In this document: piece by piece, positions 8,909 to 31,784 of the stretch
How the letters are laid out: every line of letters begins with the position of its first letter
Position numbering within the stretch: position 1 is the first letter of the stretch
Source: Verrucomicrobiota bacterium
GTDB taxonomy: Bacteria > Verrucomicrobiota > Verrucomicrobiia > Chthoniobacterales > UBA6821
Length of the DNA stretch: 32,000 bases
Assembly (NCBI GenBank): GCA_008932965.1
Contig: WBXG01000004.1
Location: forward strand, 18,768-50,767
Reading direction: 5' to 3'
Position numbers and translations under genes: made by a program
The notes under the pieces: model-generated
What the model was told of the DNA's origin: nothing
Databases searched by the model: none
The model's input: the letters and a program-made list of their open reading frames with translations, nothing else

Positions 8909-9092
8909 CTAGCCCGGATATTTCATACTGATCGTGACGAGGAGGCAGCGAAGGCTGATGGGGCAAGGCGAGCGATGAAGTCTGACGACGGCTGTATGAG
9001 TACATACTGCCCGAGGAAGACTTCGAGATCAACGCAGCATCCATCTGACTTCCCGGTCTCCGTAGTAGATCAGAATGAAATATTTGGGCTAA
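8909..9092 (+). mobile_element. MITE-like palindromic element, copy 1 (type A), first unit of a tandem dimer
   Basis: Left end CTAGCCCGGATATTTCATACTGATC, right end GATCAGAATGAAATATTTGGGCTAA (reverse complement of the left end with 3 mismatches). Core GACGACGGCTGTATGAGTACATACTGCCCGAGGA. 184 bp including the flanking tetranucleotides. Confidence 0.9.
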
Positions 9093-9272
9093 CCCGGATA
9101 TTTCATACTGATCGTGACGAGGAGGCCGCGAAAGCTGATGGGGCAAGGCGAGCGATGAAGTCTGACGACGGCTGTATGAGTACATACTGCCCGAGGAAGA
9201 CTTCGAGATCAACGCAGCATCCATCTGACTTTCCAGCTTATGCAGGTGATCAAGATGAAATACCTGGGTTAA
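9089..9272 (+). mobile_element. MITE-like palindromic element, copy 2 (type A), second unit of the tandem dimer; its right end forms the purD 3' end
   Basis: It starts at the shared CTAA junction. The interior is nearly identical to copy 1 (2 differences by eye over the central ~130 nt). The right arm is more diverged (GATCAAGATGAAATACCTGGGTTAA) and contains the purD stop codon. Confidence 0.9.
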
Positions 9273-10536
9273 AAGAAGCTCCTCCAATGTCCCGTCGATA
9301 TTGCTTTCCTTCAAAGTTAATCAAATCGGTAGCGGCATACGCCTTTCTACGAGCCTCTTCGAGTGTTTCTCCCAGCGCAGTCACTCCTAGGACACGTCCT
9401 CCAGCAGTGTAAAGAGTACCATCTTCCTCTTTGGCTCCTGCATGAAAGAGCACCACTTCTGGGTCAGAGGCCAAAGCCGCTTCCATTCCGTTAATCACCT
9501 TTCCTTTCTCAATGGTTCCAGGATACCCACCCGAGGCTACGACAATACAAACGGCAGGGCGTGAATCCCAGAGAGGCTTGTGCGTGGCAAGCGTTCCATC
9601 GAGTGTCGCCTCTATAAGATCGAGTAGATCGCTCTTAAGACGTCGCATGAGGACTTGAGTCTCGGGATCTCCAAAGCGACAGTTAAATTCTAGCACTTTG
9701 GGGCCTTGAGGAGTGATCATCACCCCAGGGAAAAGCATCCCTTGAAAACCAAGACCATCGGTTTCAAGCCCACGTAAAAAAGGTTTTAAGAGGATACGTT
9801 GAAGTTCTTCCAGAATGCTTTGGGGACACACTCCGGAAGGGGAGATGGTTCCCATGCCTCCGGTGTTGAGTCCTTGGTCTCCCTCAAGCGCCCGCTTGTG
9901 ATCGCGTGCATCAGGAAAAAGAAGGGCCTCTTTCCCATCTATGAGTGCGTGCAGAGAACATTCTACTCCCGTGAGGAATTCCTCAATGACAATGGTTGCT
10001 CCAGCAGCTCCAAAAATTTTCTCCTCCATCGATTGCCGCACTGCTTCACATGCCTCTTTTAAATTCTGAGCAATCACGACCCCTTTTCCAAGAGCGAGTC
10101 CATCGGCTTTCACAACGATTGGATAAGAGGCACTTCGAACATACTCGTAAGCAGAAGCAGCATCGGTGAATGTTTTTGAATCGGCTGTGGGAATTCCATG
10201 GCGTTGCATGAAATCCTTAGCAAACGATTTGGAAGATTCTAAACGTGCTCCGGAGGCCGTAGGGCCAAAAACACGAAGTCCTGCTTCTTTAAAAAGATCA
10301 ACAATACCGAGTGCCAATGGATCGTCTGGACCGACAATGGTGAGATCGATTTTTTTCTCTTTCGCAAAGGCGAGTAACCCTGCGCAATCGGAAGCTGCAA
10401 TCGGAATATTCACTCCGAGGGCCGCTGTGCCCGAATTTCCAGGAGCAGTAAAGAGACGTGTGAGCCGAGGACTCTGTTTTAATTTCCAGGCGAGGGCATG
10501 TTCTCGGCCGCCGGAGCCGATGAGAAGAATATTCAT
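9250..10536 (-). CDS. purD: Phosphoribosylamine-glycine ligase
   Basis: Canonical N-terminus MNILLIGSGGREHALAWKL from ATG 10534-10536; the track start at 10554 is an upstream TTG. ATP-grasp blocks are present throughout. The last ~6 codons (NPGISS*) lie inside element copy 2. Confidence 0.93.
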   Translation of the reverse strand: MNILLIGSGGREHALAWKLKQSPRLTRLFTAPGNSGTAALGVNIPIAASDCAGLLAFAKEKKIDLTIVGPDDPLALGIVDLFKEAGLRVFGPTASGARLESSKSFAKDFMQRHGIPTADSKTFTDAASAYEYVRSASYPIVVKADGLALGKGVVIAQNLKEACEAVRQSMEEKIFGAAGATIVIEEFLTGVECSLHALIDGKEALLFPDARDHKRALEGDQGLNTGGMGTISPSGVCPQSILEELQRILLKPFLRGLETDGLGFQGMLFPGVMITPQGPKVLEFNCRFGDPETQVLMRRLKSDLLDLIEATLDGTLATHKPLWDSRPAVCIVVASGGYPGTIEKGKVINGMEAALASDPEVVLFHAGAKEEDGTLYTAGGRVLGVTALGETLEEARRKAYAATDLINFEGKQYRRDIGGASFNPGISS

Positions 10537-10593
10537 GTTGGAAAAATTAGCCAAGAGAGATAGCCTCGTCCATCTTCAACTTGTTCCATTTCT

Positions 10594-10938
10594 ATGACCC
10601 TCTGCCTGCTTAAATCTAAAATTCACCGAGCCACAGTCACTGGTGCTTCGCTTGATTACGAAGGAAGCTTAACTATTGCTGCAGACCTCGCAGAACGTGT
10701 AGGACTCCTTCCTTATGAGAAAATCCTAGTTGGCAATATGGCTAATGGAGAGCGTTTTGAAACCTATGTCATTTATGGAAAAGTAGGGTCTGGAGTTATT
10801 GAACTTAATGGAGCTACCGCCTTGCTTGGAAAAATTGGAGATCTTCTTACCATCATGTCCTTTGCATGGATAGAGGCTGCTTCTACACATCACCCTAAGA
10901 TTATCACTCTTGGACGTAGTAATATTATTCAGTCGTAA
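10594..10938 (+). CDS. panD: Aspartate 1-decarboxylase proenzyme (pyruvoyl-dependent)
   Basis: 114-aa ORF. KSKIHRATVTGASLDYEGSLTI contains the conserved K-x-H-R and the G-S self-cleavage site. The stop TAA (10936-10938) is the first 3 nt of element copy 3. Confidence 0.9.
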   Translation: MTLCLLKSKIHRATVTGASLDYEGSLTIAADLAERVGLLPYEKILVGNMANGERFETYVIYGKVGSGVIELNGATALLGKIGDLLTIMSFAWIEAASTHHPKIITLGRSNIIQS

Positions 10939-11119
10939 CCCGGATATTTCATTCTAATCGTGACGAGGAGACCGCGAAGGCTGATGGGGTAAGGCAGAAG
11001 AGCATTTTGATGCCGGGCTGTATGTGTACATACTGTCCAAATCAAAATGTGAGTCTAACGCAGCATCCACCCTTGCTTCCCGGCCTCCGCAGTAGATTAG
11101 TGTGAAATATCCGGGTTAA
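10936..11119 (+). mobile_element. MITE-like palindromic element, copy 3 (type A with a different sub-apical stem)
   Basis: TAACCCGGATATTTCATTCTAATCGTGACGAGGAGACCGCGAAGGCTGATGGGG ... ACGCAGCATCCA ... TAGTGTGAAATATCCGGGTTAA. 184 bp. Internal stem CATTTTGAT/ATCAAAATG. Confidence 0.9.
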
Positions 11120-11143
11120 CCCGCATATTTCATTCTAATCGTG
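11116..11143 (+). repeat. Solo left terminal repeat abutting copy 3; supplies the last codons and stop of tadA
   Basis: TTAACCCGCATATTTCATTCTAATCGTG shares the TTAA with copy 3, and no matching interior or right end follows. The tadA stop (TGA, complement of 11130-11132) lies in the ATGAAATAT core. Confidence 0.8.
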
Positions 11144-11651
11144 CAGTGGTTGCTGCATTTAGATCCAAGCTATTTCGTTTTTCATTGAAGAATTTTTTGA
11201 GGAGGCGAGCGCACTCCTCCTCTCGTACTCCACTTTTAATATCGCATTTATGATTGAGGGTTGGCATTTGAAGAATATTAAGAAGCCCTCCAGCTGCACC
11301 TCCACGAGAATCACCACAGCCAAAAATCACCCGCCTCACACGTGCATTTACGGAGGCTCCTGCACACATGGGGCATGGCTCTTTAGTGACATAGAGATCA
11401 CACTCATTTAATCGCCAGTCCCCAATGACCGATGCAGCTTGAGTAATTGCTAAGATTTCTGCATGTGCTGTGGCATCTTTCAACGCCTCTACTTGATTGT
11501 GAGCACGGGCAATGATGCGATCGCAATAGACTATGACAGCTCCTACGGGGACCTCCTCCTTTTCATATGCATGTAGGGCCTGGCGCAATGCTTGCTGCAT
11601 AAAATAATCGTCACTCTTAAGGTCAATCGTCTCTGTTTGATAAAAATCCAT
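11130..11651 (-). CDS. tadA: tRNA-specific adenosine deaminase
   Basis: 173-aa ORF with cytidine/deoxycytidylate deaminase zinc motifs HAEILAI and PCPMCAGA, and the TadA-like N-terminus FMQQALRQALHAYEKEEVPVGAVIV. Confidence 0.9.
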   Translation of the reverse strand: MDFYQTETIDLKSDDYFMQQALRQALHAYEKEEVPVGAVIVYCDRIIARAHNQVEALKDATAHAEILAITQAASVIGDWRLNECDLYVTKEPCPMCAGASVNARVRRVIFGCGDSRGGAAGGLLNILQMPTLNHKCDIKSGVREEECARLLKKFFNEKRNSLDLNAATTARLE

Positions 11652-11675
11652 AAATTTAGTTTTAAAAGAAAAGTC

Positions 11676-11929
11676 TTAACCCGCATATTTCATACTGGTT
11701 CCTTGCAAGGCGCTGCGAATCCTGATGCAGAAACCACCGGCGGTCGGGAGACCACGGTGGAGACTGCCCTGAAAGGGCGAGACGAGCGGGAGCGAGCGAG
11801 TCAACGAAGGTGATGGATTGCAACGACGGCTGTATGTTTCATACTGCCCGAGGAGCAATTCGAAGCTGACGCAGCATCCATCTCACTTCCCGGCTTCCGT
11901 AGTAAATGAGTATGAAATATCCAGGTTAA
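11676..11929 (+). mobile_element. MITE-like palindromic element, copy 4 (type B, long 254-bp variant with a ~70-nt GC-rich insertion)
   Basis: Ends TTAACCCGCATATTTCATACTGG ... GAGTATGAAATATCCAGGTTAA. Core CAACGACGGCTGTATGTTTCATACTGCCCGAGGAGCAATTCGAAGCTGACGCAGCATCCA. The extra segment at 11731-11805 is absent from the other type B copy (21669). Confidence 0.9.
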
Positions 11930-12008
11930 AAGAACGACTCCTATTTTTGAACACCAATAATGTAGCTATTGTTGATATGAGAGGTCACAACAGCTACGGT
12001 ATTGCGAT

Positions 12009-13406
12009 ATGAGAGCAAAACAGATCAGCCAATATACCCTTATTTTGTTAATTATCAGTGCGATTGATAATATTAGAAATCTCCCTCAGATAGCTCTTTT
12101 TGGAACGACATTAATTTTTTTCTTTGCCCTATCAGCTCTTTTTTTCTTGATCCCTGTGGCTTTAGTTTCAGCCCAACTCTCTGCTTCCTCGCAGGAACAG
12201 GGAGGAATCTATCACTGGACCTGTATGGCCTTTGGACCAAAAATTGGTCTTATTGCTGTCTGGCTTCAATGGATTAATACACTTGTCTGGTTTCCTTCCA
12301 TTCTTTCCTTTATCGCTGCTACAGCGACCTATTTTTTTAATCCTGCATTAGCGAGTAATAAAACGTATCTCGTGAGTGTGATCCTTGTTGTTTTTTGGGG
12401 AATGACCTTTATGAACTTAGCTGGGGTTCGTCGCTCTGCATCACTAGCAACTATTTTTTCAGTCCTAGGGGCCCTGATTCCTATTGGCCTCATTATTGGC
12501 TTTGCAGTGCTGTGGGTTGTTACAGGAAGGCCTCTACAGATTCATTTTAACCTTCATAATTTACTACCTACCTTTAATCATGCTGAAAGTTTTTCTTCCT
12601 TAACGGCATTAACGGCAATCATGACCTCGTTTCTTGGAGTAGAGCTGGCAACTGTTCATATCAACGATGTTACAAACCCAGAAAAATCTTTCCCCAGAGC
12701 GCTCGGCGTGTCAGTGCTCATTATTCTAGGAACAATGACACTAGGATCACTTGGCATCGCACTAGTCTTACCTCTCGATCAAATTAATTTAGTCGATGGA
12801 GTCATGCAAATCTTCACTCTTTTTTCAAAAACATATCATTTCACAGTTCTTATTCCGGTCATTATGCTCATGATTATTTGTGGAGGATTGGGAGGTATGA
12901 TTAGTTACATTATTTCACCAGTAAAAGGAATATTACAGGTTGCGGAGAGCGGCTATCTACCTCCCTTTTTTACCTTCAAAAATCGTCATGGTGTTCCCAC
13001 TCGATTACTAATCACTCAAGCCATGATTGTTAGTTTGGTCTGTTCTGCATGGGGGCTGATGCCAAGTGTCAATGGATCCTACTGGCTACTAACAGATTTG
13101 AGCACTGAACTCTACATTCTCATGTATGTTTTTATGTTTCTGGCAGCATTAAAACTAAAAATAAAAATAATGCCGGCAGCACATCTTTTCAAAATTCCTG
13201 GTGGTATCTTCGGAACCGGAGTCATCTGTTTTTTAGGACTCGTAGGTTGTATCATCACTCTTGTTGTAGGATTTATCCCCCCAAGCAACATCGATGTTGG
13301 AAGCAACATGCATTACTTCATTATTTTTGCCTCTGGAGTGATCCTAATGATTCTTCCGGTATTTGGATTCTACGCTTACAAGAAACATCAGGATTCACGG
13401 GGATAG
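12009..13406 (+). CDS. APC-superfamily amino acid antiporter, GadC (glutamate:GABA antiporter) family, paralogue 1
   Basis: 465-aa polytopic ORF. Blocks FLIPVALVSAQLS, LGVELATVHINDVTNPEKSFPRAL, KNRHGVPT and FKIPGG...GFIPPSNI parallel E. coli GadC blocks as I recall them. It is clearly paralogous to 23533-24948. Confidence 0.85.
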   Translation: MRAKQISQYTLILLIISAIDNIRNLPQIALFGTTLIFFFALSALFFLIPVALVSAQLSASSQEQGGIYHWTCMAFGPKIGLIAVWLQWINTLVWFPSILSFIAATATYFFNPALASNKTYLVSVILVVFWGMTFMNLAGVRRSASLATIFSVLGALIPIGLIIGFAVLWVVTGRPLQIHFNLHNLLPTFNHAESFSSLTALTAIMTSFLGVELATVHINDVTNPEKSFPRALGVSVLIILGTMTLGSLGIALVLPLDQINLVDGVMQIFTLFSKTYHFTVLIPVIMLMIICGGLGGMISYIISPVKGILQVAESGYLPPFFTFKNRHGVPTRLLITQAMIVSLVCSAWGLMPSVNGSYWLLTDLSTELYILMYVFMFLAALKLKIKIMPAAHLFKIPGGIFGTGVICFLGLVGCIITLVVGFIPPSNIDVGSNMHYFIIFASGVILMILPVFGFYAYKKHQDSRG

Positions 13407-13438
13407 AAAAATTCTTGAGTTTCACCAACAGAGTGGCA

Positions 13439-14845: not shown

Positions 14846-14967
14846 ATGGCAAACCAAGCAGAAGAAGAAAAATAAGCAAGCTTTTTTTGCAATTGATAAT
14901 TATTCCATGATCAACACTAGTATTAATTAATAAATCGTCCTAGAATTGAAGCTTCCATTGGAAATTT

Positions 14968-16494
14968 ATGCAACGCGCCCTTCTCTCGGTCTCTAATAAA
15001 ACAGGTCTTATTGAATTTGCACGTGGTCTCCTCGCTCATCATGTAGAGTTGATTTCAACAGGTGGTACAGCCAAGGCATTAAAAAACGCTGGTATTGCTG
15101 TCCTAGAAATTTCTGATTTTACAGGCTTACCTGAAATGATGGAGGGTCGAGTTAAAACACTGCATCCTAAGGTTCATGGGGGCTTACTCTATCGTCGCGA
15201 TCAGCCCACTCATTGTGCAGAAGCAGAAGCACACGGTATCCTCCCGATTGATCTAGTTTGTGTGAATTTATATCCCTTTGTTGAAACAATTGCCCAAAAA
15301 GGAACAACATTAGAACAAGCTATTGAACAAATCGATATTGGGGGGCCCTCCATGATCCGGAGCGCTGCTAAAAATCATGCTTCTGTAACCGTGGTAGTCG
15401 ACCCCGAAGATTACCCACGTATTTTAGAAGCGATGGCCAACAACAATGGTTCTACCACCCCAGAATTACGTGCTCGATTAGCAACGAAAGCCTTTTCAAC
15501 AACAGCTTCCTACGACCACGCTATTAGCTCTTATCTTGATGGAGAGGTAGTACCAGCCACCTCTTTTTCTTTGAAACTCCCTCAAGTATGTCGCCTCCGG
15601 TATGGTGAGAACCCCCATCAAGAAGCAGAACTCTATGGGCATTTCTTTGACTATTTTGAAAAACTCCATGGTAAAGAACTTTCCTTTAATAATATTCTCG
15701 ATATTACGGCAGCCACCCATTTGATTGCGGAGTTTGATAAACCAACTATCGCGATTCTCAAACATACGAATCCCTGTGGTGTCGCCAGTGACCCAGATCT
15801 TTGTACAGCGTGGGAAAAAGCTTTTGCGACCGATCGCTCTGCTCCTTTTGGAGGTATTATCATCGTGAACCGACCAATCGATGAAAAATTAGCTCATGCG
15901 ATTTCAGAAATTTTCAGTGAGGTTATTATCGCACCTGAATTTCATGTAGAAGCACGCTCGTTATTACAAAAGAAAAAAAACCTTCGCCTCATGCGCCTTT
16001 TACAGAAAGCACCGCCTACAGAACGTAATCTACGATCGGTGATTGGTGGTATTCTTTTACAAGATGCCGATATCGATTCTTGGAATAAGGTAGGAACGAT
16101 GGAGCAACGTGTCGTTTCGGAGCGCCCCCCCACGCGCGATGAGCTCGAAGCAATGGAGTTTGGTTGGAAGGTAGTAAAGCACGTCAAAAGCAATGCCATC
16201 GTCTATGCTGGTCGTGATCGAACGTTAGGTATTGGAGCTGGTCAAATGTCCCGTGTTGATGCTTCACGTATCGCTGTCTGGAAGGCTGCCGAAGCAGGTC
16301 TCTCTCTCAAAGGAAGCGTCGTCTGCAGTGATGCTTTTTTCCCTTTTGCTGATGGCCTTGTTGCAGCCGCTGAGGCAGGAGCAACTGCTGCTATCCAGCC
16401 GGGGGGATCGATACGTGATCCAGAAGTTATCGCTGCTGCCAATGAGCATCGCATTGCAATGGTCCTAACTGGCATGCGTCATTTTAGGCACTAG
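14968..16494 (+). CDS. purH: Bifunctional AICAR transformylase / IMP cyclohydrolase
   Basis: 508-aa ORF with the MGS-like N-terminal domain ([21 protein letters not shown]...GGTAKAL) and an AICARFT domain ending in the conserved ...TGMRHFRH. The stop TAG (16492-16494) coincides with the TA flank plus first base of a truncated element. Confidence 0.95.
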
Positions 16495-16535
16495 CCCGAA
16501 TATTTCATACCGATCACCTTAGTAGACCGGGCAGC
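16491..16535 (-). repeat. Truncated element end (best match: right arm in reverse orientation)
   Basis: CTAGCCCGAATATTTCATACCGATC-ACCTTAGT-AGACCGGGCAGC. The GATC...AGACCGGG spacing matches the reverse complement of the copy 1 right arm (GATCTACTACGGAGACCGGG). Confidence 0.6.
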
Positions 16536-16560
16536 TAGCCCGGATATTTCACGCTTAGTC
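16535..16560 (+). repeat. Second solo terminal repeat directly abutting the first
   Basis: CTAGCCCGGATATTTCACGCTTAGTC. The first 19 nt match the left end of copy 1, after which similarity is lost. Confidence 0.6.
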
Positions 16561-16615
16561 TATGACTGCTTGTGCAAAGCTACTACCGTGAAGATTTAAA
16601 AATAATATTTACCCC

Positions 16616-17455: not shown

Positions 17456-17520
17456 AATAGGGAACCTCTTTCCTAAAACGACATTTCGCTTTTTTCATTG
17501 TTCCTATAACCTCTTTTGCC

Positions 17521-18356: not shown

Positions 18357-19163
18357 ATGATGCACTACCTTTCCTACGATTTCGTTCAAAATGCTCTAAT
18401 TGCTGGATCCATTGCTGCTGCTCTTGGAGCTGTAGTTGGTTACTTTGTGATTATTCGCAATGTCGGTTTTGCTGCCCATGCCCTCGCCCACATTGGATTT
18501 ACAGGAGCTACCGGAGCCATCCTCTTTGGACTTACCCCGCTACAAGGGATGTTAGTGATGAGCTCTCTTGCAGGAGCTACTATGGGGATTTCGGGTAACA
18601 GATTTCATCGTAGTGAACTTGCTATCGGAATGGTTCTCTCCATCTCGCTTGGTTTAGGAACACTCTTCCTCTCCCTCTATCAAGGTTTTGCTGGGGAGGC
18701 AACAGCGATCCTTTTTGGAAATATCTTTGGTGTTTCTCATACTCAAGTGATGGAAACCGTTCTACTTTCAACATTGAGCTTGTTGCTCTTGGCCCTTTTC
18801 TCACGTCGCCTCCTTTTTGTAAGTATTCAACCCGATCTTGCAGAATCGCGAGGATTATCACTCACCTTTCTTTCTACTGCATTCATGATCATCCTTGCAA
18901 TCAGTGTTGCCCTAGTAAGTCAGGTCGTTGGTACTTTACTAGTCTTCACTTTATTAATTGGTCCTGCTGGTATTGCAACGCGTCTGAGTCATACTTTCTG
19001 GAGAACAATTTTACTCTCTCTATTCATTGGAATCGTCTCTGTTTGGAGCGGAATCCTTTTAGCATGCTTCACAAATCAACCTCCGAGTTTTTGGATCACT
19101 AGTATTCTTTTTTGCCTCTATATTCTTACAGAGCTCAAGGTAAAGCTTTTTGAGAGCGTTTAG
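18357..19163 (+). CDS. Metal ABC transporter permease (ZnuB-like, ABC-3 family)
   Basis: 268-aa ORF with 8-9 TM helices. It is third in the SBP-ATPase-permease order. The stop TAG (19161-19163) is the start of a truncated element. Confidence 0.88.
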   Translation: MMHYLSYDFVQNALIAGSIAAALGAVVGYFVIIRNVGFAAHALAHIGFTGATGAILFGLTPLQGMLVMSSLAGATMGISGNRFHRSELAIGMVLSISLGLGTLFLSLYQGFAGEATAILFGNIFGVSHTQVMETVLLSTLSLLLLALFSRRLLFVSIQPDLAESRGLSLTFLSTAFMIILAISVALVSQVVGTLLVFTLLIGPAGIATRLSHTFWRTILLSLFIGIVSVWSGILLACFTNQPPSFWITSILFCLYILTELKVKLFESV

Positions 19164-19210
19164 CCCGCATATTTCATACTGGTTCGACGCGAGGTGCTGT
19201 GAATCCTGAT
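19160..19210 (+). repeat. Truncated type B element (left end and left arm only)
   Basis: TTAGCCCGCATATTTCATACTGGTTCGACGCGAGGTGCTGTGAATCCTGAT matches the first ~50 nt of copies 11676 and 21669. The core and right end are missing. Confidence 0.8.
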
Positions 19211-21668: not shown

Positions 21669-21852
21669 CTAGCTCGCATATTTCATACTGAATCGTCATG
21701 AGGCGCCGTGAATTCTGATGCAGATCAAGAAGGTGATGGATTGCGACGACGTCTGTATATTTCATACTGCCCAAGGAGTAATTCGAGGCTGGCGCAGTAT
21801 CCATCAGGTGTTCGCAAGTCGCAGCAGAATCAGCATGAAATATTCGGGCTAG
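21669..21852 (+). mobile_element. MITE-like palindromic element, copy 5 (type B, 184 bp)
   Basis: CTAGCTCGCATATTTCATACTGAATCGTCATGAGGCGCCGTGAATTCTGATGCAGA ... GCGACGACGTCTGTATATTTCATACTGCCCAAGGAG ... CAGCATGAAATATTCGGGCTAG. It lies 47 nt upstream of the rfbA start. Confidence 0.9.
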
Positions 21853-22273: not shown

Positions 22274-22459
22274 CTAGCCCGCATATTTCATACTGATCGT
22301 GACGAGGAGGCCGCGAAGGCTGATGGGGTAAGGCACGTGATCAAGTCTGACGACGGCTCTATGAGGTCCTACTGCCCGAGGAAGACTTCGAGCTTGGGCG
22401 CCGCATCCACTCTTGCTTCCCGACCTCTGCAGGTAGTTGATATGAAATATGTGGGCTAG
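22274..22459 (+). mobile_element. MITE-like palindromic element, copy 6 (type A, 186 bp)
   Basis: CTAGCCCGCATATTTCATACTGATCGTGACGAGGAGGCCGCGAAGGCTGATGGGG ... TCTGACGACGGCTCTATGAGGTCCTACTGCCCGAGGAAGACTTCGAG ... GTTGATATGAAATATGTGGGCTAG. Confidence 0.9.
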
Positions 22460-22542
22460 ATAACCCAGGGTTGTATTATCAGGAAAACAATTGCAGAAGA
22501 TGCGGTATTTTTTGTTAACATGCGTTAATTATGTTGACATTT

Positions 22543-23400: not shown

Positions 23401-23507
23401 AGCCCGGATATTTCATACTAAGTCTCTTACTGCATTGTACAATGCATGATGACTGCTGTTTTGGACTAGAATTATGTTATGACACTTCAGTATGAAATAT
23501 CCGGACT
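23401..23507. mobile_element. Short (107-bp) element with the family terminal repeats but an unrelated interior
   Basis: AGCCCGGATATTTCATACTAAGT ... CTTCAGTATGAAATATCCGGACT. The interior lacks the GACGACGGCTGTATG core and contains a perfect 16-bp palindrome TGCATTGTACAATGCA (23431-23446). It ends 25 nt before the permease ATG. Confidence 0.8.
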
Positions 23508-23532
23508 ATAACAACGTTAAGTGCTATTTCCT

Positions 23533-24948
23533 ATGAATAAAAAAACGTTAAGTCTCTTTGCCTTAGTAATGATGAATGTCGCTGCTATCGACAGTCTGAG
23601 AATATTACCTGTGAGTGCCGAATACGGTCTCTCGTTGATTTTTTACTATGTCATGGCAGCATTACTCTTTTTTGTTCCTACTGCACTTGTCTCAGCTGAA
23701 TTGTCAACCGGGTGGCCTGAATCAGGGGCAATGTACGTTTGGGTGAGAGAAGCATTTGGCCCCAAATTTGGATTTATGATTATTTGGGTGCAATGGATTA
23801 GCAATATTGCTTGGTTTCCAACAATAATGTCCTTCATTGCTGCTACCCTCTTTTATTGTATCGATCCCAACCTGGTGAATAATAAATCTTCCATGATCAC
23901 AGTGATCTTTTTCTTATTTTGGGGTATTACATTCCTCAATTTTTTTGGGATCAAAACGGCCAGTTTTTTTGGAAGCCTCTCAGCGATTCTTGGAACGCTA
24001 GCACCCATGGGATTTATTATTATTCTCGGAGCTATTTGGATGATCATGGGAAAACCACTAAGCATTTCCTTGAGTTGGCATGCTCTTCTTCCTGATGTCA
24101 AAAACATCGATAATATGGCTCTCTTGACCGTGCTTTTATATAGCCTTGTCGGTATTGAACTCTCTGCTGCTCATGCAGGAGAGGTCAAAAACCCTCAAGC
24201 CAACTACCCAAAAGCTATTTTTTGGTCTGTTTTAATCATTCTTGGCAGCCTTATTTTTTCCTCCCTTGCCATTGCCTTAGTTGTACCACAATCCGAGCTT
24301 AATATTATTGCTGGTTTGCTCCAAGCCTTCGAAATCTTTTTTAATGCATTTCATCTTCATGGGCTCATGCCTCTCTTAGCTTTTTTAATCACATTAGGAG
24401 CCCTAGGAGGATTGAATTCATGGATTTTGGGGCCAAGTAAAAGTTTACTCATAGCATGCCACGATGGATGCCTTCCTCCTCAACTGGGAAAAAAAAACAG
24501 TCACGGGGTTCCTATCTTTATTTTACTGCTTCAAGGACTCATTTTTTCTGTACTCACCGCCCTCTTTTTACTGATGCCTACGGTTAGTAGTGGGTTCTTG
24601 CTTTTAACCAATATCGCCTCTCTCCTAGCACTCTTAGGATACATTGCTATGTTTGCTGCTGCTGTGAGATTGAGGTATAAATATCCTGATGTGAAACGAG
24701 CTTTTGTCACACCCGGTGGAAAGGTGGGGCTTTGGTTTGTTTGTACTATTGGCGTTCTGAGCTCCTTATTTACCATCTCTCTTGGCTTCTTGCCTCCAAG
24801 TCAAATCGCCGTTGGTAATGTTTTAAGATACCAGCTTACCATTGGTTTTGGAATTGTGTTCGGCTGTCTCTTCCCTCTAGCGCTCTATAGCCTCCATGAA
24901 CATTGGAAAAAAAAGAGCGCGGTCGCTTCCTCTTCAAGATCAGTATGA
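23533..24948 (+). CDS. APC-superfamily amino acid antiporter, GadC family, paralogue 2
   Basis: FVPTALVSAELST, VGIELSAAHAGEVKNPQANYPKAI, KKNSHGVPI and YPDVKRAFVTPGGKVG...LGFLPPSQI parallel GadC blocks. The start was moved to ATG 23533 (MNKKTL...); the track start at 23521 is GTG. The last ~10 codons derive from an element arm. Confidence 0.88.
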   Translation: MNKKTLSLFALVMMNVAAIDSLRILPVSAEYGLSLIFYYVMAALLFFVPTALVSAELSTGWPESGAMYVWVREAFGPKFGFMIIWVQWISNIAWFPTIMSFIAATLFYCIDPNLVNNKSSMITVIFFLFWGITFLNFFGIKTASFFGSLSAILGTLAPMGFIIILGAIWMIMGKPLSISLSWHALLPDVKNIDNMALLTVLLYSLVGIELSAAHAGEVKNPQANYPKAIFWSVLIILGSLIFSSLAIALVVPQSELNIIAGLLQAFEIFFNAFHLHGLMPLLAFLITLGALGGLNSWILGPSKSLLIACHDGCLPPQLGKKNSHGVPIFILLLQGLIFSVLTALFLLMPTVSSGFLLLTNIASLLALLGYIAMFAAAVRLRYKYPDVKRAFVTPGGKVGLWFVCTIGVLSSLFTISLGFLPPSQIAVGNVLRYQLTIGFGIVFGCLFPLALYSLHEHWKKKSAVASSSRSV

Positions 24949-24962
24949 AATATTTTGTTTAA
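24915..24962 (-). repeat. Element fragment (left arm plus terminal repeat, reverse orientation) containing both convergent stop codons
   Basis: GCTTCCTCTTCAAGATCAGTATGAAATATTTTGTTTAA compares with the reverse complement of the copy 1 left end, GCCTCCTCGTCACGATCAGTATGAAATATCCGGGCTAG. The variant tip GAAATATTTTGTTTAA recurs at 31769-31784. Confidence 0.7.
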
Positions 24963-26808
24963 GTTTTTTTTGAGCTGCTTTCTGGATTTCAGTGTCTTTT
25001 TGATCTCTTATCAATAGATTCAGATCTGTAATGGTCATTCCCTCCATAGCCTCATCTAGAGAATTATAGTCATGCTGGACTGCTTGATGCTGGCGCAGTA
25101 ATAGCTGTTCCCAAGTATGAATTTCAGCCAAACGCTGAGCCTCAGCAACTTGTTCTGGAGTAGCGGTAAAACTGATGGTCTCTAATTCGCCATGTTTAAT
25201 ACAAAAAGCATTGGGACCAGCATTTTTTAATTTTTGCTTATCTTGCTCTAGGTCTTTCTGATATTGAGGATTACCTCGGAGAAACACCTCTAAACTCTCT
25301 TCTGTTTTGGAAAAAATGGTTTTATTGGTAATTGTGGGCGGTCCATTGACGACATTGTAGAAATCACCGTTATCATCAAACCCCAAAACCAAGGTTTTCT
25401 CCTGAGGCTCTTTTGCAAAATATTCTGTAGGGACATTAGAACCGATACCTCCATCCACTAAAGTATCACCTGTATTAGGATCCCTTTTTGCTCGGTAGGC
25501 AAGCGGAAGAGCTGCAGAAATAGTAGCTGCAATCGCAATGGACATGGTAGGGCACGTCTCTGTATTAAAATATATTTCCTTTTGTTCACGAAGATCAAAT
25601 GCAGTCACAGTAAGCTCTTTAAAACGAGGATCCATTTTTTGAAGAAGTGCTAATTCCCCAAAAGTGATCATATGGGTTTTATTTGAATCAAGATCTTCCT
25701 TGAGTTGGTTAATAAGTTGACGGTCTGGATCACTAATACCGTCGATAGCATTAACTTTTTGTTCTAATTCCTCCTTTGATAATGAATCAAGGTAACTTTT
25801 GATACTTCCAGCAATTGATTGATTCATTTTTTCAGTAAGATAGGAGCCGGCAAAACCTATTTGATGCACACTTATCAAATTATGATCGAGGTACGAGTTA
25901 AGCTCTTGAGAAATAATCGGGTCTTTTGATTTTCCAACCAGAGCATTTAAAAGATCCATGCTGCCCGCCGCTTTCTTTACTTCACTTGCACTCATTCCAG
26001 CAGCAATAAAGGTAGCCGTCATCGCTCCTGCGGAACTACCGGCAACAGCTTTCAAACCCTGGAGTGTACCCGAGGCTCCCACCGCAGTTAAAAATCCCAC
26101 ATAAGCTTCTCCTTTGGTTCCACCTCCCGAGAGCACGAGGTTTTTCACAGGAGAAGCTGGACTCACCACCGAATAGGTTCCATCGCTCTTGAGAAAAATC
26201 TGAGGTTCCTTTTGATAGTAAGGCTCAACCTTATTACCCAATTGATAGAAGGCAGAGAGTGTTTCTTTGTAGGCCTCTTGAATAGCCTCTCTTGGAGAGT
26301 TAGGGTGGCGCTCAAGAGAGGCTCTTAATTTTTGAGTGATGGGCTCAAGTGACTGTGCTGCTAAAGCACGAACTTTGTTTGCGTCTTCTGATTGGGGTAA
26401 AATACCTGCTTCTAAAATCACCTTTTCTGTTGCTTCATGATAGTCGTCGCCTAGCCCCTTGATAAGTGATTCTGTATCGATATGGGGTTGCTCTTGAGGA
26501 GTAAAAAATAGAGCTGAAAGAGAGTTGCTAAAAAATGAGAAAGGAGCCGAAAAAAAACTTTGTTCTCCATTTGTATGTTGAAGATTTTTTTCGACTACTT
26601 GTTTCCAGGAAGCAGATGTTGGAGCAGCATGTAGATTGGTTGTGCTGCTAAAAATTAATCGACTCGGCCATTGATTCCGAAGCCATGTGAATGGGGACTT
26701 CCAAAACGATGTTGTCTGAGAAGTCTCAGAGTTCGGTGGAGGAGCTTGGGTTCTTTGGGAAGGATTCCCTTGAGAAGGAGGCACGGATGAACTTCCTATA
26801 CGATTCAT
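24940..26808 (-). CDS. Patatin-like phospholipase (ExoU/VipD-like architecture) with a ~220-aa N-terminal region of unknown function
   Basis: Oxyanion motif GGGTKGEAY, lipase serine motif GSSAG and catalytic Asp motif LVDGGIGSN. The N-terminus is S/P/T/Q-rich. ATG at 26806-26808 (MNRIGSS...); the track start at 26814 is TTG. It lies 12 nt downstream of the gltB stop. Confidence 0.88.
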   Translation of the reverse strand: MNRIGSSSVPPSQGNPSQRTQAPPPNSETSQTTSFWKSPFTWLRNQWPSRLIFSSTTNLHAAPTSASWKQVVEKNLQHTNGEQSFFSAPFSFFSNSLSALFFTPQEQPHIDTESLIKGLGDDYHEATEKVILEAGILPQSEDANKVRALAAQSLEPITQKLRASLERHPNSPREAIQEAYKETLSAFYQLGNKVEPYYQKEPQIFLKSDGTYSVVSPASPVKNLVLSGGGTKGEAYVGFLTAVGASGTLQGLKAVAGSSAGAMTATFIAAGMSASEVKKAAGSMDLLNALVGKSKDPIISQELNSYLDHNLISVHQIGFAGSYLTEKMNQSIAGSIKSYLDSLSKEELEQKVNAIDGISDPDRQLINQLKEDLDSNKTHMITFGELALLQKMDPRFKELTVTAFDLREQKEIYFNTETCPTMSIAIAATISAALPLAYRAKRDPNTGDTLVDGGIGSNVPTEYFAKEPQEKTLVLGFDDNGDFYNVVNGPPTITNKTIFSKTEESLEVFLRGNPQYQKDLEQDKQKLKNAGPNAFCIKHGELETISFTATPEQVAEAQRLAEIHTWEQLLLRQHQAVQHDYNSLDEAMEGMTITDLNLLIRDQKDTEIQKAAQKKLKQNISY

Positions 26809-26820
26809 ATTCAAAAGAGG

Positions 26821-29800
26821 TTAAGCTCCTGGGGTTACAGTAATGGCCTCCGTGATGATGGTTGAAGTCTGTTCCTCTTCTTTTTTAATTTCGAGTTCTA
26901 GTGGCTTCGCAATAGGGATATGAGGAATCACTTTCCAAAATTGAGCACGATAGAGAGACCAATTGCTTAACATTTCTTGAGCAAGGATACTTCCGGTTTT
27001 TTGGGAATGCATTTGGATCAACTTCTCTAGCTCCTCAGTCTCCTCCTCAGGGAGAAGGCGTTGTGCGGTAACTAACTGGGGATTGAGCAGTTTTAAAAAA
27101 TGATCGGATGAATCAAGGATGTAAGCAGTTCCTCCAGTCATACCAGCAGCAAAGTTTTTCCCAGTGGGGCCAAGTACCACCACCGTTCCTCCGGTCATAT
27201 ATTCACAACCGTGATCCCCTACCCCTTCAATAACTGCTGCACCACCAGAATTACGGACACAAAAGCGCTCCCCTGCGCGTCCAGAGGCAAAAAGGACTCC
27301 CCCTGTTGCCCCATACATCACTGTATTACCGATGATACTATTATTTTTGGCGATAAAGTGATGTCCAGGACGTGGTCGAATGATGATTTCACCACCACTC
27401 ATTGATTTTCCAACGTAGTCATTGGCCTCCCCAGTAAGGTAAAGCGAGATTCCAGAAGCAAGAAATGCGCCTAGACTCTGCCCTGCTGTTCCCTGGAAGT
27501 CTAAGGTTATGGTTCCCTCTGGAAGGCCTTCCCCACCGTATTGATAGGCAATCTCTCCAGAGAGTTTTGTTGCAAGAGAGCGGTTGGTGTTATCTATTTT
27601 GTAAGAAAGCCGTACCGGTTTTGCATCACGCAAGGCCTCCTCAGCATCCTGAAGAATGATATCGTCGAGGGGTTGATCATGCTCAGGATCATTTCGTTCA
27701 CGGGTGGCATAGCGAATCGCTGTCGGATCATCTGCCACCACATCAGTAATCATACGGCTCAAATTAAGTTTGTTTGCCTTAGGATGATTTTCAATAGGTC
27801 TTTGACGCAGGTTTTCTGTGTGGCCAATCATTTCATCAATGGTTCGAAAACCAAGACGGGCCATGATTTCACGGACTTCATGGGCTACCGCATTAAAAAA
27901 ATGAACCACATTCTCTGGCTTCCCTTTGAACTTGCCACGAAAGCGCTCTTCTTGTGTGGCAATACCGACGGGGCAATTATTCAAATGACATTGGCGCACA
28001 TAAACACATCCCATAGCAATTAGTGCTGCTGTTCCGAAGTTATATTCTTCAGCTCCAAGGAGTGTGGCATAAATAATATCTTCTCCTGTACGCATTCCTC
28101 CATCGGTCCGCAAAGTGACTCGGTTACGGAGCTGGTTGAGAAGCAAGACCTGATGTGCTTCTGCAAGTCCCAGCTCCCATGGTCCTCCTGCATGTTTGAT
28201 AGAACTTAAAGGAGAGGCCCCTGTTCCTCCTTCATGACCACTGATAAGAATAATATCGGCATGAGCCTTTGCCACACCAGCTGCAACAGTCCCAATCCCA
28301 CTTTCGGCAACAAGCTTCACACAAACGCGAGCACGAGGGTTCACCTGTTTGAGATCATAAATGAGCTGTGCTAAATCTTCGATCGAATAGATATCGTGAT
28401 GGGGAGGGGGGGAGATGAGTGTGACTCCAGGAACGGAGTGACGTAAGGTTGCAATATAATGATTCACTTTTTGACCAGGAAGCTGGCCCCCTTCTCCGGG
28501 CTTGGCCCCTTGAGCCATTTTGATTTCAATTTCTTTGGCACTGGCTAGGTAAGCCGCACTCACCCCAAAACGTCCTGTGGCAATTTGTTTAATAGCACTA
28601 TTGGCCCAATCACCATTTTCAAGACGCTTGTAACGCAGCGGGTCTTCTCCTCCCTCTCCAGAATTTGATTTTCCACCAATCCGGTTCATAGCAATAGCCA
28701 AGGTCTCATGAGCCTCAGGGCTCAGTGCTCCTAAGGACATTCCTGCTGTCGTGAACCGACGACGAATTTCCTCAATCGATTCAACCTCGCTCAGTGGTAT
28801 TGGACCGGTCGTTTTTGGAATAAATTCCAAAAGATTGCGTAAGGAATGAGGGGTTGAGGTTAAAACAGCATCAACATAAGCTTTGTAATCCTCAGGTTTG
28901 TTAGAGCGAATAAAGGTATGGAAATTTTTAATGACAGGGGGAGTCACTGCATGAAGCTCTCCACTGCGTCGAAAGCGATAGAAGCCTGGATCCCCTAGAA
29001 CCAAAGCCTCTCCCTCCTCCTGAGCAGGAGGGGCATAGGCACTCTGATGGCGCAATAAACTCTCTTGAGCAATCTCTTCAAAACCGATTCCCTCCAGTGG
29101 GGATGAGGTCCCACGAAAACATTCCTCAATGAATTCCGACGAGAGTCCAATAGCCTCAAATGTCTGTGCTCCACGATAGCTTCCGATAACCGAGATTCCC
29201 ATCTTGGACATGATTTTAAGAAGTCCACTAGAAATCGCTTTTTTGTAATTGAGAAGTGCGGTGGCATGATCAACAGTGACTTTCCCTTTGGCTCGAATTT
29301 CTCGAATCGTCTCAAGGGCAAGATAAGGATTAATGGCACTAGCACCATACCCAATGAGGCAAGCGATTTGATGGACATCACGTGCTTCTCCTGTCTCACT
29401 CACAAGACTCGCTTTCATGCGCTTACCAACACGTAAGAGATGATGATGGACCGCTCCTACAATAAGTAATGCTGGAATAGCAACCCATTCATGGTCGGCT
29501 TTGCGATCACTTAAAATGAGAATTCTAGCTCCTGCATCAACTGCTTGTTCTACAGCACGACAGACTTCCCGGACTGCTGGAGCAAGACCGTGCGGGCCAG
29601 CAGATACTTTCCAACAGGTGGAAATCGTTGTAGCTTGATGAACTCCTCCACTCTTTTTTAAGGCAAGGAATTCCTCATTGAGCAGTATTGGAGAATCAAG
29701 TGTGATTTGTTCTGCATGTGCTGGGGTTTCTGCTAGGAGATTGCGCTTCCAACCAATAACAGTAAATAGTGACATCACGAGACGTTCACGAATCGGATCA

Positions 29801-31395
29801 ATAGGAGGATTGGTAACCTGGGCAAAAAGCTGGCTAAAATAGGTGTATAGCAATCGTGGACGAAGTGAAAGAACAGCAAGGGGAGTATCACTTCCCATAG
29901 AACCAACAGCCTCAGCTCCATCATGGATCATCGGTTTGAAAATCATTTCTAATTCCTCATTGGTATAACCAAAGGAGAGCTGCTGTTGTCTTAGAGTAAG
30001 AAGATCGAGCTCTTTGGAAGGCTCTTGGAGCTCTTCTGCCAGAATCGGTTTGATTTTAACAAGATGTTCATCGACCATCTTGCGATAATCATTTTGGGCG
30101 GCAAGCTGGTCCTTGATCTCTTGATCTCTTAAAAGAAGACCACGAGCTGTATCGACGGCGATCATTTCACCTGGTCCGAGACGTCCTTTTTCGATAACGC
30201 TGGCTTGGTTTAAATTACTTACTCCGACTTCAGAGCCAATGACAAAAAGTCCATCACTGGTGATTTCATAACGTGCCGGGCGAAGTCCATTACGATCCAG
30301 GCAAGCCCCTACGGTCACTCCGTCGGTAAAGACTAAGGCTGCAGGTCCATCCCATGGCTCTCCAAGACAGGTATGATATTCATAAAAACCAGCTAGTGCT
30401 GGGGAAATATCTTTGTTAGGTCGCCATGCAGGAGGGACAAGCATGGTCATTGCATGTAACAGAGAGCGACCTGACATGGTGAGTATTTCAAGCATGTTAT
30501 CGAGACTTGCTGAATCGGAGCCACCTGGTTGAATAATCGGCTTGAGCAAATCGATATCAGCTCCCCAGAAATCTGCCTCGAGCTCTGCTTCCCGAGCATG
30601 GGTCCACGTACGATTTGCCCTGATAGTATTAATTTCTCCATTATGAGAGAGCATCCTAAAGGGATGTGCGAGTGGCCACGTAGGAAAGGTATTGGTACTA
30701 TAGCGTTGATGATAGACACAAAGAGCAGTTTCAAAATCGGGATGCATAAGATCCGAAAAAAACTTCTCGAGTGATTTAGAGACCATCAGCCCTTTGTAAA
30801 CAAGGGTTCGATGAGAAAAAGAGGGGATATAAAAATCTTCGATCTTATCAGCAGCTGCACGATCTTCGATTTCATTGCGTGCTAAGAACAGACGCTGTTC
30901 ATAATCGTCATTGCTCATTCCTTGTGGGCGTCCTACTAGGACTTGCTCTATAGCTGGCAATGTCATCAAGGCCTTAGTTCCAAGGACATGCTTGTTTACA
31001 GGAACAGGGCGCCATCCCAAAAGATATAAACCCCGTTTCGCGATCACCTCCTCAGTAATGGCCTTGGCTCGTGCCTGAGCATAAAGATTATCCTGAGGAA
31101 GAAACATCATTCCAATCCCTAAATCCTCATCCCTATAGAGTCGATGTCCACGTAACTCGACTTCCTTTCGGAAAATTTTGTATGGAATTTGAGTTGTTAT
31201 TCCCGCCCCATCTCCGGTTCTTGAATCAGCATCGAGGGCTCCTCGATGCATCAAACCACAGAGAGAACGAAGGGCTATTTTTAGAATTCGATTGGAGCGG
31301 GTTCCATCGATCTGTGCCACCATTCCAACACCACACGCATCATGTTCATGCATGGGATCGTAGAGGCCAGAGAGCATTGGAAGAGAATGATTCAT
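26821..31395 (-). CDS. gltB: Glutamate synthase large subunit (Ntn amidotransferase + central + FMN/3Fe-4S + GXGXG domains)
   Basis: 1524-aa ORF with a propeptide then the catalytic Cys (HDACGVGMVAQ), a Cys cluster (CHLNNCPVGIATQ), FMN domain blocks (ISGHEGGTGASP) and a C-terminal beta-helix domain (GDHGCEYMTGG). Confidence 0.96.
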   Translation of the reverse strand: MNHSLPMLSGLYDPMHEHDACGVGMVAQIDGTRSNRILKIALRSLCGLMHRGALDADSRTGDGAGITTQIPYKIFRKEVELRGHRLYRDEDLGIGMMFLPQDNLYAQARAKAITEEVIAKRGLYLLGWRPVPVNKHVLGTKALMTLPAIEQVLVGRPQGMSNDDYEQRLFLARNEIEDRAAADKIEDFYIPSFSHRTLVYKGLMVSKSLEKFFSDLMHPDFETALCVYHQRYSTNTFPTWPLAHPFRMLSHNGEINTIRANRTWTHAREAELEADFWGADIDLLKPIIQPGGSDSASLDNMLEILTMSGRSLLHAMTMLVPPAWRPNKDISPALAGFYEYHTCLGEPWDGPAALVFTDGVTVGACLDRNGLRPARYEITSDGLFVIGSEVGVSNLNQASVIEKGRLGPGEMIAVDTARGLLLRDQEIKDQLAAQNDYRKMVDEHLVKIKPILAEELQEPSKELDLLTLRQQQLSFGYTNEELEMIFKPMIHDGAEAVGSMGSDTPLAVLSLRPRLLYTYFSQLFAQVTNPPIDPIRERLVMSLFTVIGWKRNLLAETPAHAEQITLDSPILLNEEFLALKKSGGVHQATTISTCWKVSAGPHGLAPAVREVCRAVEQAVDAGARILILSDRKADHEWVAIPALLIVGAVHHHLLRVGKRMKASLVSETGEARDVHQIACLIGYGASAINPYLALETIREIRAKGKVTVDHATALLNYKKAISSGLLKIMSKMGISVIGSYRGAQTFEAIGLSSEFIEECFRGTSSPLEGIGFEEIAQESLLRHQSAYAPPAQEEGEALVLGDPGFYRFRRSGELHAVTPPVIKNFHTFIRSNKPEDYKAYVDAVLTSTPHSLRNLLEFIPKTTGPIPLSEVESIEEIRRRFTTAGMSLGALSPEAHETLAIAMNRIGGKSNSGEGGEDPLRYKRLENGDWANSAIKQIATGRFGVSAAYLASAKEIEIKMAQGAKPGEGGQLPGQKVNHYIATLRHSVPGVTLISPPPHHDIYSIEDLAQLIYDLKQVNPRARVCVKLVAESGIGTVAAGVAKAHADIILISGHEGGTGASPLSSIKHAGGPWELGLAEAHQVLLLNQLRNRVTLRTDGGMRTGEDIIYATLLGAEEYNFGTAALIAMGCVYVRQCHLNNCPVGIATQEERFRGKFKGKPENVVHFFNAVAHEVREIMARLGFRTIDEMIGHTENLRQRPIENHPKANKLNLSRMITDVVADDPTAIRYATRERNDPEHDQPLDDIILQDAEEALRDAKPVRLSYKIDNTNRSLATKLSGEIAYQYGGEGLPEGTITLDFQGTAGQSLGAFLASGISLYLTGEANDYVGKSMSGGEIIIRPRPGHHFIAKNNSIIGNTVMYGATGGVLFASGRAGERFCVRNSGGAAVIEGVGDHGCEYMTGGTVVVLGPTGKNFAAGMTGGTAYILDSSDHFLKLLNPQLVTAQRLLPEEETEELEKLIQMHSQKTGSILAQEMLSNWSLYRAQFWKVIPHIPIAKPLELEIKKEEEQTSTIITEAITVTPGA

Positions 31396-31414
31396 TGAAA
31401 AAAGAGTGTGATTG

Positions 31415-31599
31415 AACCCGAATATTTTACATCAAATCTATTACGGCTTGTGGAAAGCCCCATGGCTACTGCGTTGGTCTTGAATGGTGATTGGGGCGAT
31501 AGGGACTCCTACAGCCCAGCATCACAATACTTCGCCCTCCTTGTAATAATGAGCTTTGCACGCCGCCTCATGACACTTCTGCATGAAATATCCCGGTAA
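31415..31599 (-). mobile_element. MITE-like palindromic element, copy 8 (diverged, type B-like, reverse orientation), 20 nt upstream of the gltB start
   Basis: AACCCGAATATTTTACATC ... CTGCATGAAATATCCCGGTAA. The interior aligns with the reverse complement of the other copies (ATCTATTACGG vs ATCTACTACGG; CTACTGCGTTGGTCT vs GATGCTGCGTTGATCT; CGCCGCCTCATGAC vs GGCGCCTCATGAC). Confidence 0.8.
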
Positions 31600-31689
31600 C
31601 GTGCTTGAGATACTACAGGAATCTAGAGATCTGTTGCAATCATAAGAGAATTTATTCCCTATTGGATAAATCATCCCATTTTCATTTGC

Positions 31690-31784
31690 TCAGTGAGTCA
31701 GGCATTATCAGACTTCTTCACACACCTTGCCCCATGAGCCTACGTAGCCTCCTCATCACGATGGGTAGGAAATATTTTGTTTAA
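31690..31784 (-). repeat. Degenerate half-copy (type A left half, reverse orientation)
   Basis: The reverse complement reads TTAAACAAAATATTTCCTACCCATCGTGATGAGGAGGCTACGTAGGCTCATGGGGCAAGGTGTGTGAAGAAGTCTGA, against the copy 1 left half ...ATATTTCATACTGATCGTGACGAGGAGGCAGCGAAGGCTGATGGGGCAAGGCGAGCGATGAAGTCTGA. Similarity fades beyond that point. Confidence 0.55.

Follow-up and report, generated by a model that had tools for sequence, protein, structure and literature searches.

We analyzed a 32,000-nt stretch of contig WBXG01000004.1 (assembly GCA_008932965.1), from a Verrucomicrobiota bacterium of the order Chthoniobacterales, which is referred to here as the window. It is a housekeeping chromosomal stretch of ~44% GC that carries a Bat/MoxR operon, purD, panD, tadA, purH, a znuABC-type transporter, rfbA/rfbC, amino-acid permeases, and the gene for the glutamate synthase large subunit. 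Approximately 6% of the window is occupied by copies of a short repeat, which constitutes a new family of MITEs (miniature inverted-repeat transposable elements), in itself an ordinary kind of element. The element proper, whose coordinates exclude the flanking 4-mers, is ~176 nt long and runs from CCCGSATATTTCATACTG to CAGTATGAAATATSCGGG. The end motif CCCGSATATTTCATACTG, with up to three mismatches allowed, has 18 matches in the window compared to 0.03 expected from shuffled sequences, and none of 100 shuffles reached 18. The repeat family reported in the initial annotation of the window is thus real, and the coordinates given for it are correct. Its description as a short, noncoding, multicopy, MITE-like family bounded by terminal inverted repeats (TIRs), present at high density with no transposase nearby, was likewise borne out. 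The window contains eight two-ended copies and ~6 fragments (14 in total), which are intergenic or overlap the 3′ ends or last codons of genes, as follows.

8909..9092 (proper 8913-9088), + strand: MITE copy 1, subfamily A1; flanks CTAG (8909-8912) and CTAA (9089-9092); full-length nhmmer match, E=1.9e-56.
9089..9272 (proper 9093-9268), + strand: MITE copy 2, subfamily A1; right flank TTAA (9269-9272); nhmmer match.
10935..11119 (proper 10939-11115), + strand: MITE copy 3, subfamily A2; left 4-mer GTAA, right 4-mer TTAA; nhmmer match.
11120..11156, + strand: solo left end of a truncated copy; nhmmer model positions 1-39.
11676..11929 (proper 11680-11925), + strand: long chimeric copy; flanks TTAA/TTAA; nhmmer match.
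16491..16569 (fragment 16495-16569), - strand: two truncated ends in series, with CTAG before each; nhmmer model positions 129-180 and repeat search.
19160..19210 (fragment 19164-19210), + strand: truncated type-B left end, with TTAG before it; nhmmer model positions 1-49.
21669..21852 (proper 21673-21848), + strand: MITE copy, subfamily B; flanks CTAG/CTAG; nhmmer match.
22274..22459 (proper 22278-22455), + strand: MITE copy, subfamily A1; flanks CTAG/CTAG; nhmmer match.
23401..23507 (proper 23403-23505), no strand assigned: short derivative of 103 nt, with both ends around a different interior; degenerate flanks TGAG and CTAT; both ends matched by the end-motif search.
24925..24962 (fragment 24925-24958), + strand: truncated right end, from inverted and direct repeats and sequence reading.
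31415..31599 (proper 31417-31596), - strand: degenerate full-length copy, subfamily C, inverted; nhmmer match, E=2.6e-16.
31699..31784 (fragment 31699-31782), - strand: truncated left half, inverted; nhmmer model positions 8-84 and direct repeat.

Copies 1 and 2 lie head to tail with the CTAA 4-mer in common, and copy 2 was found in every related strain fetched. The long copy, which sits between the divergent tadA and amino-acid permease genes, joins a type-B left arm containing a 74-nt internal module (11732-11805) to a type-A right end, and the subfamily C copy lies upstream of the glutamate synthase large-subunit gene. An nhmmer model of six window copies, used on both the window and related loci, returned seven full-length copies and four fragments in the window; it missed 23403-23505 and 24925-24958, which were detected by repeat search and direct sequence reading. 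The same copies, including the head-to-tail pair (8908-9272), were recovered by repeat search and Tandem Repeats Finder. Neither Pfam searches of all long open reading frames (ORFs) nor tblastn revealed a transposase in the window, in agreement with the initial annotation, and the window ORFs that cross copies lack Pfam domains. Rfam likewise gave no match over the window at gathering thresholds, the only match in E-value mode being a chance one (21 bits compared to the 38 required).

Scanning one genome per species for exact matches to the end motif yielded at least 84 loci, nearly all from Verrucomicrobia metagenome-assembled genomes (MAGs) labeled Chthoniobacterales or Spartobacteria. The main MAGs among the loci listed are Kiruna_bin-02438, Tobar2m-G38, Deming_bin.170, and SMAG_U8253, and a JGI freshwater metagenome also contains the same contig. 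In the window and the listed loci (587 kb), nhmmer found 192 nonredundant matches, 100 of them full length and 92 truncated, although the related loci cover parts of fragmented genomes and were picked for carrying the end motif, so that densities are biased upward. Specifically, Kiruna_bin-02438 contributed 71 matches, Tobar2m-G38 80, Deming_bin.170 13, and SMAG_U8253 3; among the listed loci, unrelated genomes with a single chance end match gave none. The family is therefore not confined to the window and is common to four freshwater Chthoniobacterales genomes. No match was obtained when a copy was compared to plasmids by blastn or when the end motif was sought in viral contigs.

The modal length of the family is 180 nt when half of each TA is counted and 176 nt as the element proper. 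Its TIRs are 18-20 nt long, and at most positions 64-68 of 68 copies show them paired; 303 ends are present across the loci. Clustering gave four main 176-nt subfamilies with identities of 86-90% within and ~60-70% between them, the closest pair of copies being 97.7% identical. With these at least four subfamilies, the chimeras, and a long form (~250 nt) that carries the 74-nt module, the family is more diverse than the two subfamilies first proposed. The module is GC rich, has small hairpins of its own (CCACCG...CGGTGG and GCCCTGAAAGGGC), and occupies a constant left-arm position in ~15-20% of full copies (for example, L022:290-550 and L186:1845-2115); the 176-nt forms may have lost it as ancestral sequence, or it may be a nested insert. 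A separate observation concerns the conserved core (for example, window 8990-9012 and 21752-21769), where the end motif recurs as an inner copy, which reads (A/G)T(A/G)TTTCATACTG in type B and CATACTG in type A and faces a CTGTATG half-site. This inner copy may serve the transposase as a second binding site or be left over from the formation of the element.

The initial annotation placed TA beside every intact end and took TA to be the duplicated target. The flanks of two window copies, 23403-23505 and 31417-31596, are degenerate in this respect, and TA is found on both sides in 80 of the 94 full copies from all loci. For these 94 copies, we compared the 4-mer left of CCCG... with the 4-mer right of ...CGGG. 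The two 4-mers are identical in 57 copies, including TTAA/TTAA in 32, CTAG/CTAG in 16, and TTAG/TTAG, which is not palindromic, in 8. Left and right agree at both outer positions (Fisher p=2e-7 for position 1 and p=3e-10 for position 4). A TA duplication with complementary element tips, by contrast, predicts CTAA/TTAG or TTAG/CTAA flanks, which are expected when an A..T or G..C element enters the other kind of site, and these combinations were found in 0 of 94 copies. Each subfamily has TTAA-, CTAG-, and TTAG-flanked members, and 4-mer type is independent of subfamily (chi-square p=0.85); hence, the bases next to CCCG belong to the target and not to the element. Thus, the flank statistics show that the duplicated unit is the whole 4-mer YTAR (TTAA, CTAG, or TTAG) rather than TA. 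Because the TA and 4-bp models predict the same sequence for an empty site, these statistics are the decisive test. In addition, 23 of 188 flanks abut another copy with one 4-mer in common.

End pairs set wider apart than those of a MITE were sought in all loci, and one was found, in locus L013 from a Verrucomicrobia MAG of the Pedosphaerales. This element of 1,801 bp is flanked by CTAG/CTAG, has the ends CCCGGATATTTCATACTGG... and ...TATGAAATATCCGGG, and contains an ORF that matches Pfam PF13701 (2.7e-97) and NCBIfam NF033539, IS1380 family transposase (1.6e-72). The ORF has an internal deletion, and the protein has thousands of relatives. An intact 488-aa version is found at L097, a contig that coincides exactly with a single 2,045-bp element, which begins with CCCGGATATTTCATACTGG... 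and finishes with ...GGTATGAAATATCCGGG; the left end of this element also holds an inverted TTTCATAC/GTGTGAAA pair. The MITE ends, in short form CCCGSATATTTCATA, are identical to those of the L013 and L097 elements over the first 18-19 nt. Hence, the family to which the ends lead is IS1380, and the IS630/Tc1-mariner attribution made in the initial annotation is not supported.

Ends of the form CCCG[CG]A... abutted by YTAR recur in IS1380 relatives on 4-116 kb contigs (retrieved by exact protein look-up), in 46 full-length IS1380 relatives from a metagenome scan, and in annotated IS1380 elements on plasmid pKF715A of Pseudomonas putida and on a plasmid of Rhizobium leguminosarum. In the pKF715A copy, the inverted repeat is perfect over 20 nt, CTAG included. 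Among the full-length relatives, the flanks are CTAG/CTAG in 16, CTAA/CTAA in 3, and TTAG/TTAG in 2. A direct tandem pair of full-length IS1380 elements (L092:2403-5915) has CTAA at all three junctions, and L087 and L088 harbor copies with identical transposases whose flanks, CTAG/TTAG in one and TTAG/CTAG in the other, are reciprocal, as would be expected had two copies recombined; both arrangements fit a 4-bp duplication. Many 2-kb metagenome contigs have unmatched flanks, probably from repeat collapse in assembly, and are weak evidence for concordance, yet YTAR is present at every end. IS1380 transposases are prokaryotic relatives, or an outgroup, of piggyBac (PMC10140906, PMC10813416). Neither an IS1380-derived MITE nor a verrucomicrobial MITE like this one emerged from a literature search, which had ISfinder and Dfam outside its scope.

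Contigs of close relatives were retrieved by exact-protein look-up of TadA and PanD. The panD of the window is also present in assemblies GCA_029981515.1 and GCA_029866255.1. Two of these, L187 and L188, are 99.0-99.9% identical to window 9094-12619 yet lack copy 3 (10939-11115). The difference is exactly 181 nt, corresponding to the element plus one 4-mer, and the panD stop GTAA is joined directly to the solo end that carries the 3′ end of tadA, which is retained. In L186, which is 93-94% identical, a copy of another subfamily with TTAA/TTAA flanks occupies the same site, and panD ends in TCT TAA compared to TCG TAA in the window. The simplest history for copy 3 is an ancestral filled site with TTAA/TTAA flanks, a synonymous T-to-G change, and, in the L187 lineage, a precise loss through excision or through recombination across the 27-nt direct repeats that the two left ends form; independent gains at the site are possible. 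When the joined flanks of each copy were compared to the fetched loci by BLAST, mostly neighboring copies were matched, and two cross-species empty sites, at ~70% identity, are too diverged for the target to be read. L012 was also considered as the empty site of copy 21669-21852 and was rejected: it has a single CTAG there, but its downstream genes differ.

The same contigs reveal exchange between copies. From 9094 to 10962, the window and L187 show 19 differences, of which 15 fall inside copy 9093-9268; this corresponds to 8.5% divergence compared to ~0.2% in the flanks. Relative to L187:1-175, these 15 are grouped in a patch, which matches the right arm of type B and disrupts the pairing. 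The pattern points to gene conversion between dispersed copies, which evolve far faster than their flanks. At the tadA-permease site, L186 carries a 176-nt A1-type copy that has only its right-most ~45 nt in common with the window, while in the window and L187 that same ~45 nt follows a left two-thirds of the B-long type. This indicates replacement in place: chimeras form at the site itself, gene conversion between dispersed copies being the simplest route. At a further site, the purD-adjacent copy is interrupted in L186:1-130 and L189:1-130, where the right half that remains comes after a type-B right end and a TTAA, as though one copy had inserted into another; one side of this apparent nested insertion was read.

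Our analyses make it very likely that these MITEs derive from, and were moved in trans by, an IS1380-family DDE transposase. We infer movement in trans because there is no transposase nearby and because the interiors of the IS1380 elements are unlike the MITE beyond ~19 nt. In the proposed mechanism, the transposase would bind the 18-20-nt ends, excise or copy the element, and insert it at YTAR with a 4-nt stagger. Copies accumulate between genes, at stop codons, and beside one another; once resident, they decay, become truncated, are precisely lost, and swap patches with other copies. Several observations weigh against this explanation. Over the window and the Chthoniobacterales loci (~580 kb), tblastn detected no IS1380 transposase, the L013 gene being the only one recovered from all loci. 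This 44% GC lineage is not the source of the closest full-length elements, which belong to high-GC (58-68%) Verrucomicrobia and to other bacteria, and the MITE interior is unlike theirs beyond the first ~19 nt. The 4-mers are nonidentical in 37 of 94 copies. The sole strain-level polymorphic site reads GTAA/TTAA and so needs the later synonymous change noted above, and its 181-nt difference may have arisen without a transposase, by deletion between 27-nt direct repeats. The full-length relatives fetched are from DNA of 48-68% GC overall; no low-GC host was evident from amino-acid composition among the 120 best transposase relatives, and the 80 IS1380 loci of the metagenome scan, all of 48-66% GC, contained the MITE subterminal sequence in no case.

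The family may be a fossil in this genome, the IS1380 transposase having since been lost, so that all present variation would stem from deletion, truncation, and gene conversion. We regard this as possible, although less likely than not. It accords with the lack of a transposase in the window and related loci, the modest within-subfamily identity (with no pair closer than 97.7%), the high proportion of truncated copies, the 27-nt direct repeat beside the 181-nt difference, which could mediate deletion, and the evident patchy exchange between copies. However, the same site is occupied by different subfamilies in related strains and the duplications are intact in 57 of 94 copies. Moreover, only a biased fraction of each fragmented genome was covered, and such assemblies usually miss insertion sequences.

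The elements also have the capacity to form a hairpin over their whole length. Copy 1, of subfamily A1, folds end to end (-77.5 kcal/mol, z=-7.2), and the subfamily B copy at 21673-21848 folds weakly beyond its terminal repeats (z=-1.2). RNAalifold on all copies recovers the terminal and central stems only, because of indels and chimeras; the structure was pooled from single-sequence folds and tested on 68 copies, and is thus derived from the same sequences. In this test, 79.9% of cells are paired, compared to 33-43% with partners slid, and 240 cells are changed on both sides, compared to 107 in shuffles (0 of 500 shuffles reach 240). The same stem is formed from different pairs in different subfamilies, GAAGTCT/AGACTTC in A1, GGATTGC/GCAATTC in B, and CATTTTGA[CT]/[GA]TCA[CA]AATG in A2, and several stem positions show two or three pair types. 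The covariation support for the hairpin is therefore real but statistically not strong, given the few events, their subfamily level, and the derivation of the structure from the same sequences. The end-to-end hairpin is kept by the propagating lineages, which suggests that the fold matters for spread.

The two strands are not equivalent. In 90 of 96 copies, the modeled strand has the more stable fold, its advantage over the complement averaging ~12 kcal/mol, and over the pairs common to the structures from either strand, G-U cells outnumber A-C cells 308 to 152 (19 versus 7 columns). Singleton (private) changes are symmetric (27 versus 38). The inherited G-U excess suggests selection for one folded strand in propagating lineages, and a strand-biased mutation history is a possible alternative source of the asymmetry. 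Because the stems covary between subfamilies, the inherited wobbles favor one strand, and that strand folds better, we tentatively raise the idea that spreading lineages were selected to fold as one single strand (RNA or single-stranded DNA), the hairpin serving IS1380/piggyBac-type transposition or an RNA function rather than being a by-product; we hold this to be unlikely.

It is more improbable still that the family is mainly a structured RNA or regulatory repeat under host selection (for example, a terminator, an mRNA stabilizer, or an RNase target as proposed for ERIC-like repeats) and not a selfish element. The stable end-to-end hairpin with compensatory changes, the better fold and wobble excess of one strand, and the location of copies at gene ends would fit such a role. 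However, copies show no orientation bias relative to neighboring genes (25 sense versus 24 antisense at 3′ ends, and 15 versus 15 at 5′ ends), which argues against a host-selected, strand-specific RNA role. In addition, resident copies decay and their conversion patches break pairing, the hairpin is not followed by a T-run, Rfam gave no match, and the termini and duplications are those of a transposon. An origin from another YTAR-targeting family is scarcely likely. IS5-group and IS701 elements make 4-bp YTAR target duplications, according to ISfinder descriptions, and such a duplication by itself is not specific to IS1380; however, the first 18-19 nt are identical to those of elements encoding an IS1380-family transposase, CCCG ends with YTAR recur in the 46 IS1380 relatives and the annotated plasmid copies, and no IS5-group or IS701 element with these ends was seen, although no dedicated search was made. 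Least credible is the reading of the initial annotation, in which CCCGGATATTTCAT-ended, TA-duplicating MITEs of the IS630/Tc1-mariner type resemble Neisseria Correia elements: it is favored by the TA on both sides in most copies and by the CTAG/CTAA/TTAA junctions at 8909-9272, readable as TA duplication with G..C and A..T tips, but the bases around TA also match left versus right, the predicted flank combinations are missing, the supposed tip bases vary freely within subfamilies, the ends are identical to those of IS1380-family elements, and no IS630-like gene was seen.

Comparison with known systems places the family closest to IS1380. Like the IS1380-family elements of P. putida pKF715A, the R. 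leguminosarum plasmids, and L097, the MITEs have ends of the form CCCG[CG]A..., each with YTAR directly beside it; unlike them, the MITEs are ~176 nt long, lack a transposase gene, have an unrelated interior, and form a whole-length hairpin that is not found in the full elements. The comparison with Correia elements made in the initial annotation holds for a bacterial MITE in general and fails on TA duplication and on the partner family. Correia elements and ERIC-like repeats are likewise short, noncoding, TIR-bounded, intergenic, and present in high copy, and they too can fold into RNA hairpins and change the ends of genes, but here the duplication is 4-bp YTAR rather than TA, the partner is IS1380 rather than an IS630-like or unknown one, and there is no orientation-dependent relation to genes. 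A TTAA target, a 4-bp duplication, and CCC...GGG tips are hallmarks of piggyBac. The MITE family resembles piggyBac and its MITEs in that TTAA is its commonest target, in its 4-bp duplication, and in its CCC...GGG tips, but differs in its bacterial host and in a target relaxed to YTAR, with CTAG and TTAG common. IS5-group elements and IS701 are alike in the YTAR duplication; the MITE ends match IS1380-family elements.

The insertions alter the ends of genes. In 15 of 96 copies, a flanking YTAR also supplies the stop for an ORF that is 120 aa or longer, compared to 6.3% of available YTAR sites (p=9e-4, from a crude baseline). A pyrimidine followed by a TAA or TAG stop constitutes a YTAR site, and duplication restores the stop, so that insertions at gene ends would be tolerated in this gene-dense genome. 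In the window, the panD stop codon (10936-10938) lies inside the GTAA left 4-mer of copy 3, the purH stop codon TAG (16492-16494) lies inside the first CTAG of 16491..16569, and the stop TAG (19161-19163) of an ABC-3 permease gene (18357-19163, assigned by Pfam) lies inside the TTAG of 19160..19210. The purD ORF (9250-10536, minus strand) reads through TTAA and 7 codons into copy 2 to stop at 9250-9252, and its product is 428, 434, or 446 aa long across strains (the window and the L186-L192 orthologues), with the C terminus set by the element. The minus-strand tadA ORF stops at 11130-11132 within the solo left end (11120..11156), and two convergent genes, for an amino-acid permease (23521-24948, + strand) and a patatin-like protein (24940-26814, - strand), both stop within 24925..24962. 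As a side observation, long ORFs run through tandem copies at 8817-9314 (-), 8975-9412 (+), and L001:5409-5846, with no Pfam match, and one ORF of this kind is annotated as a 145-aa gene in the JGI record; these are probably spurious "hypothetical proteins" built of repeat sequence.

Two tandem repeats unrelated to the family were also noted. The 9-nt repeat CAAGCATCC is perfect over 11.4 copies at 31898-32000 and runs past the window end. By eye, it falls in an ORF from ~31836 with a signal-peptide-like N terminus and would encode (QAS)n, and its number could differ between strains in steps of 9 nt. A 7-nt repeat, TTACTCA (7.1 copies, 2850-2899), lies in the short gap between a BatD-like gene (968-2782) and a VWA/TPR gene (2944-5148), both on the minus strand, and could be a slipped-strand tract.

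For genome annotation, the family matters because the elements rewrite gene ends and lead gene callers to spurious proteins, and the elements probably break assemblies of these freshwater Verrucomicrobia. For transposon biology, the relaxed TTAA (YTAR) target together with the CCC...GGG tips may offer a parallel with piggyBac, by analogy, and the family constitutes a natural set of short substrates for an IS1380-type transposase.

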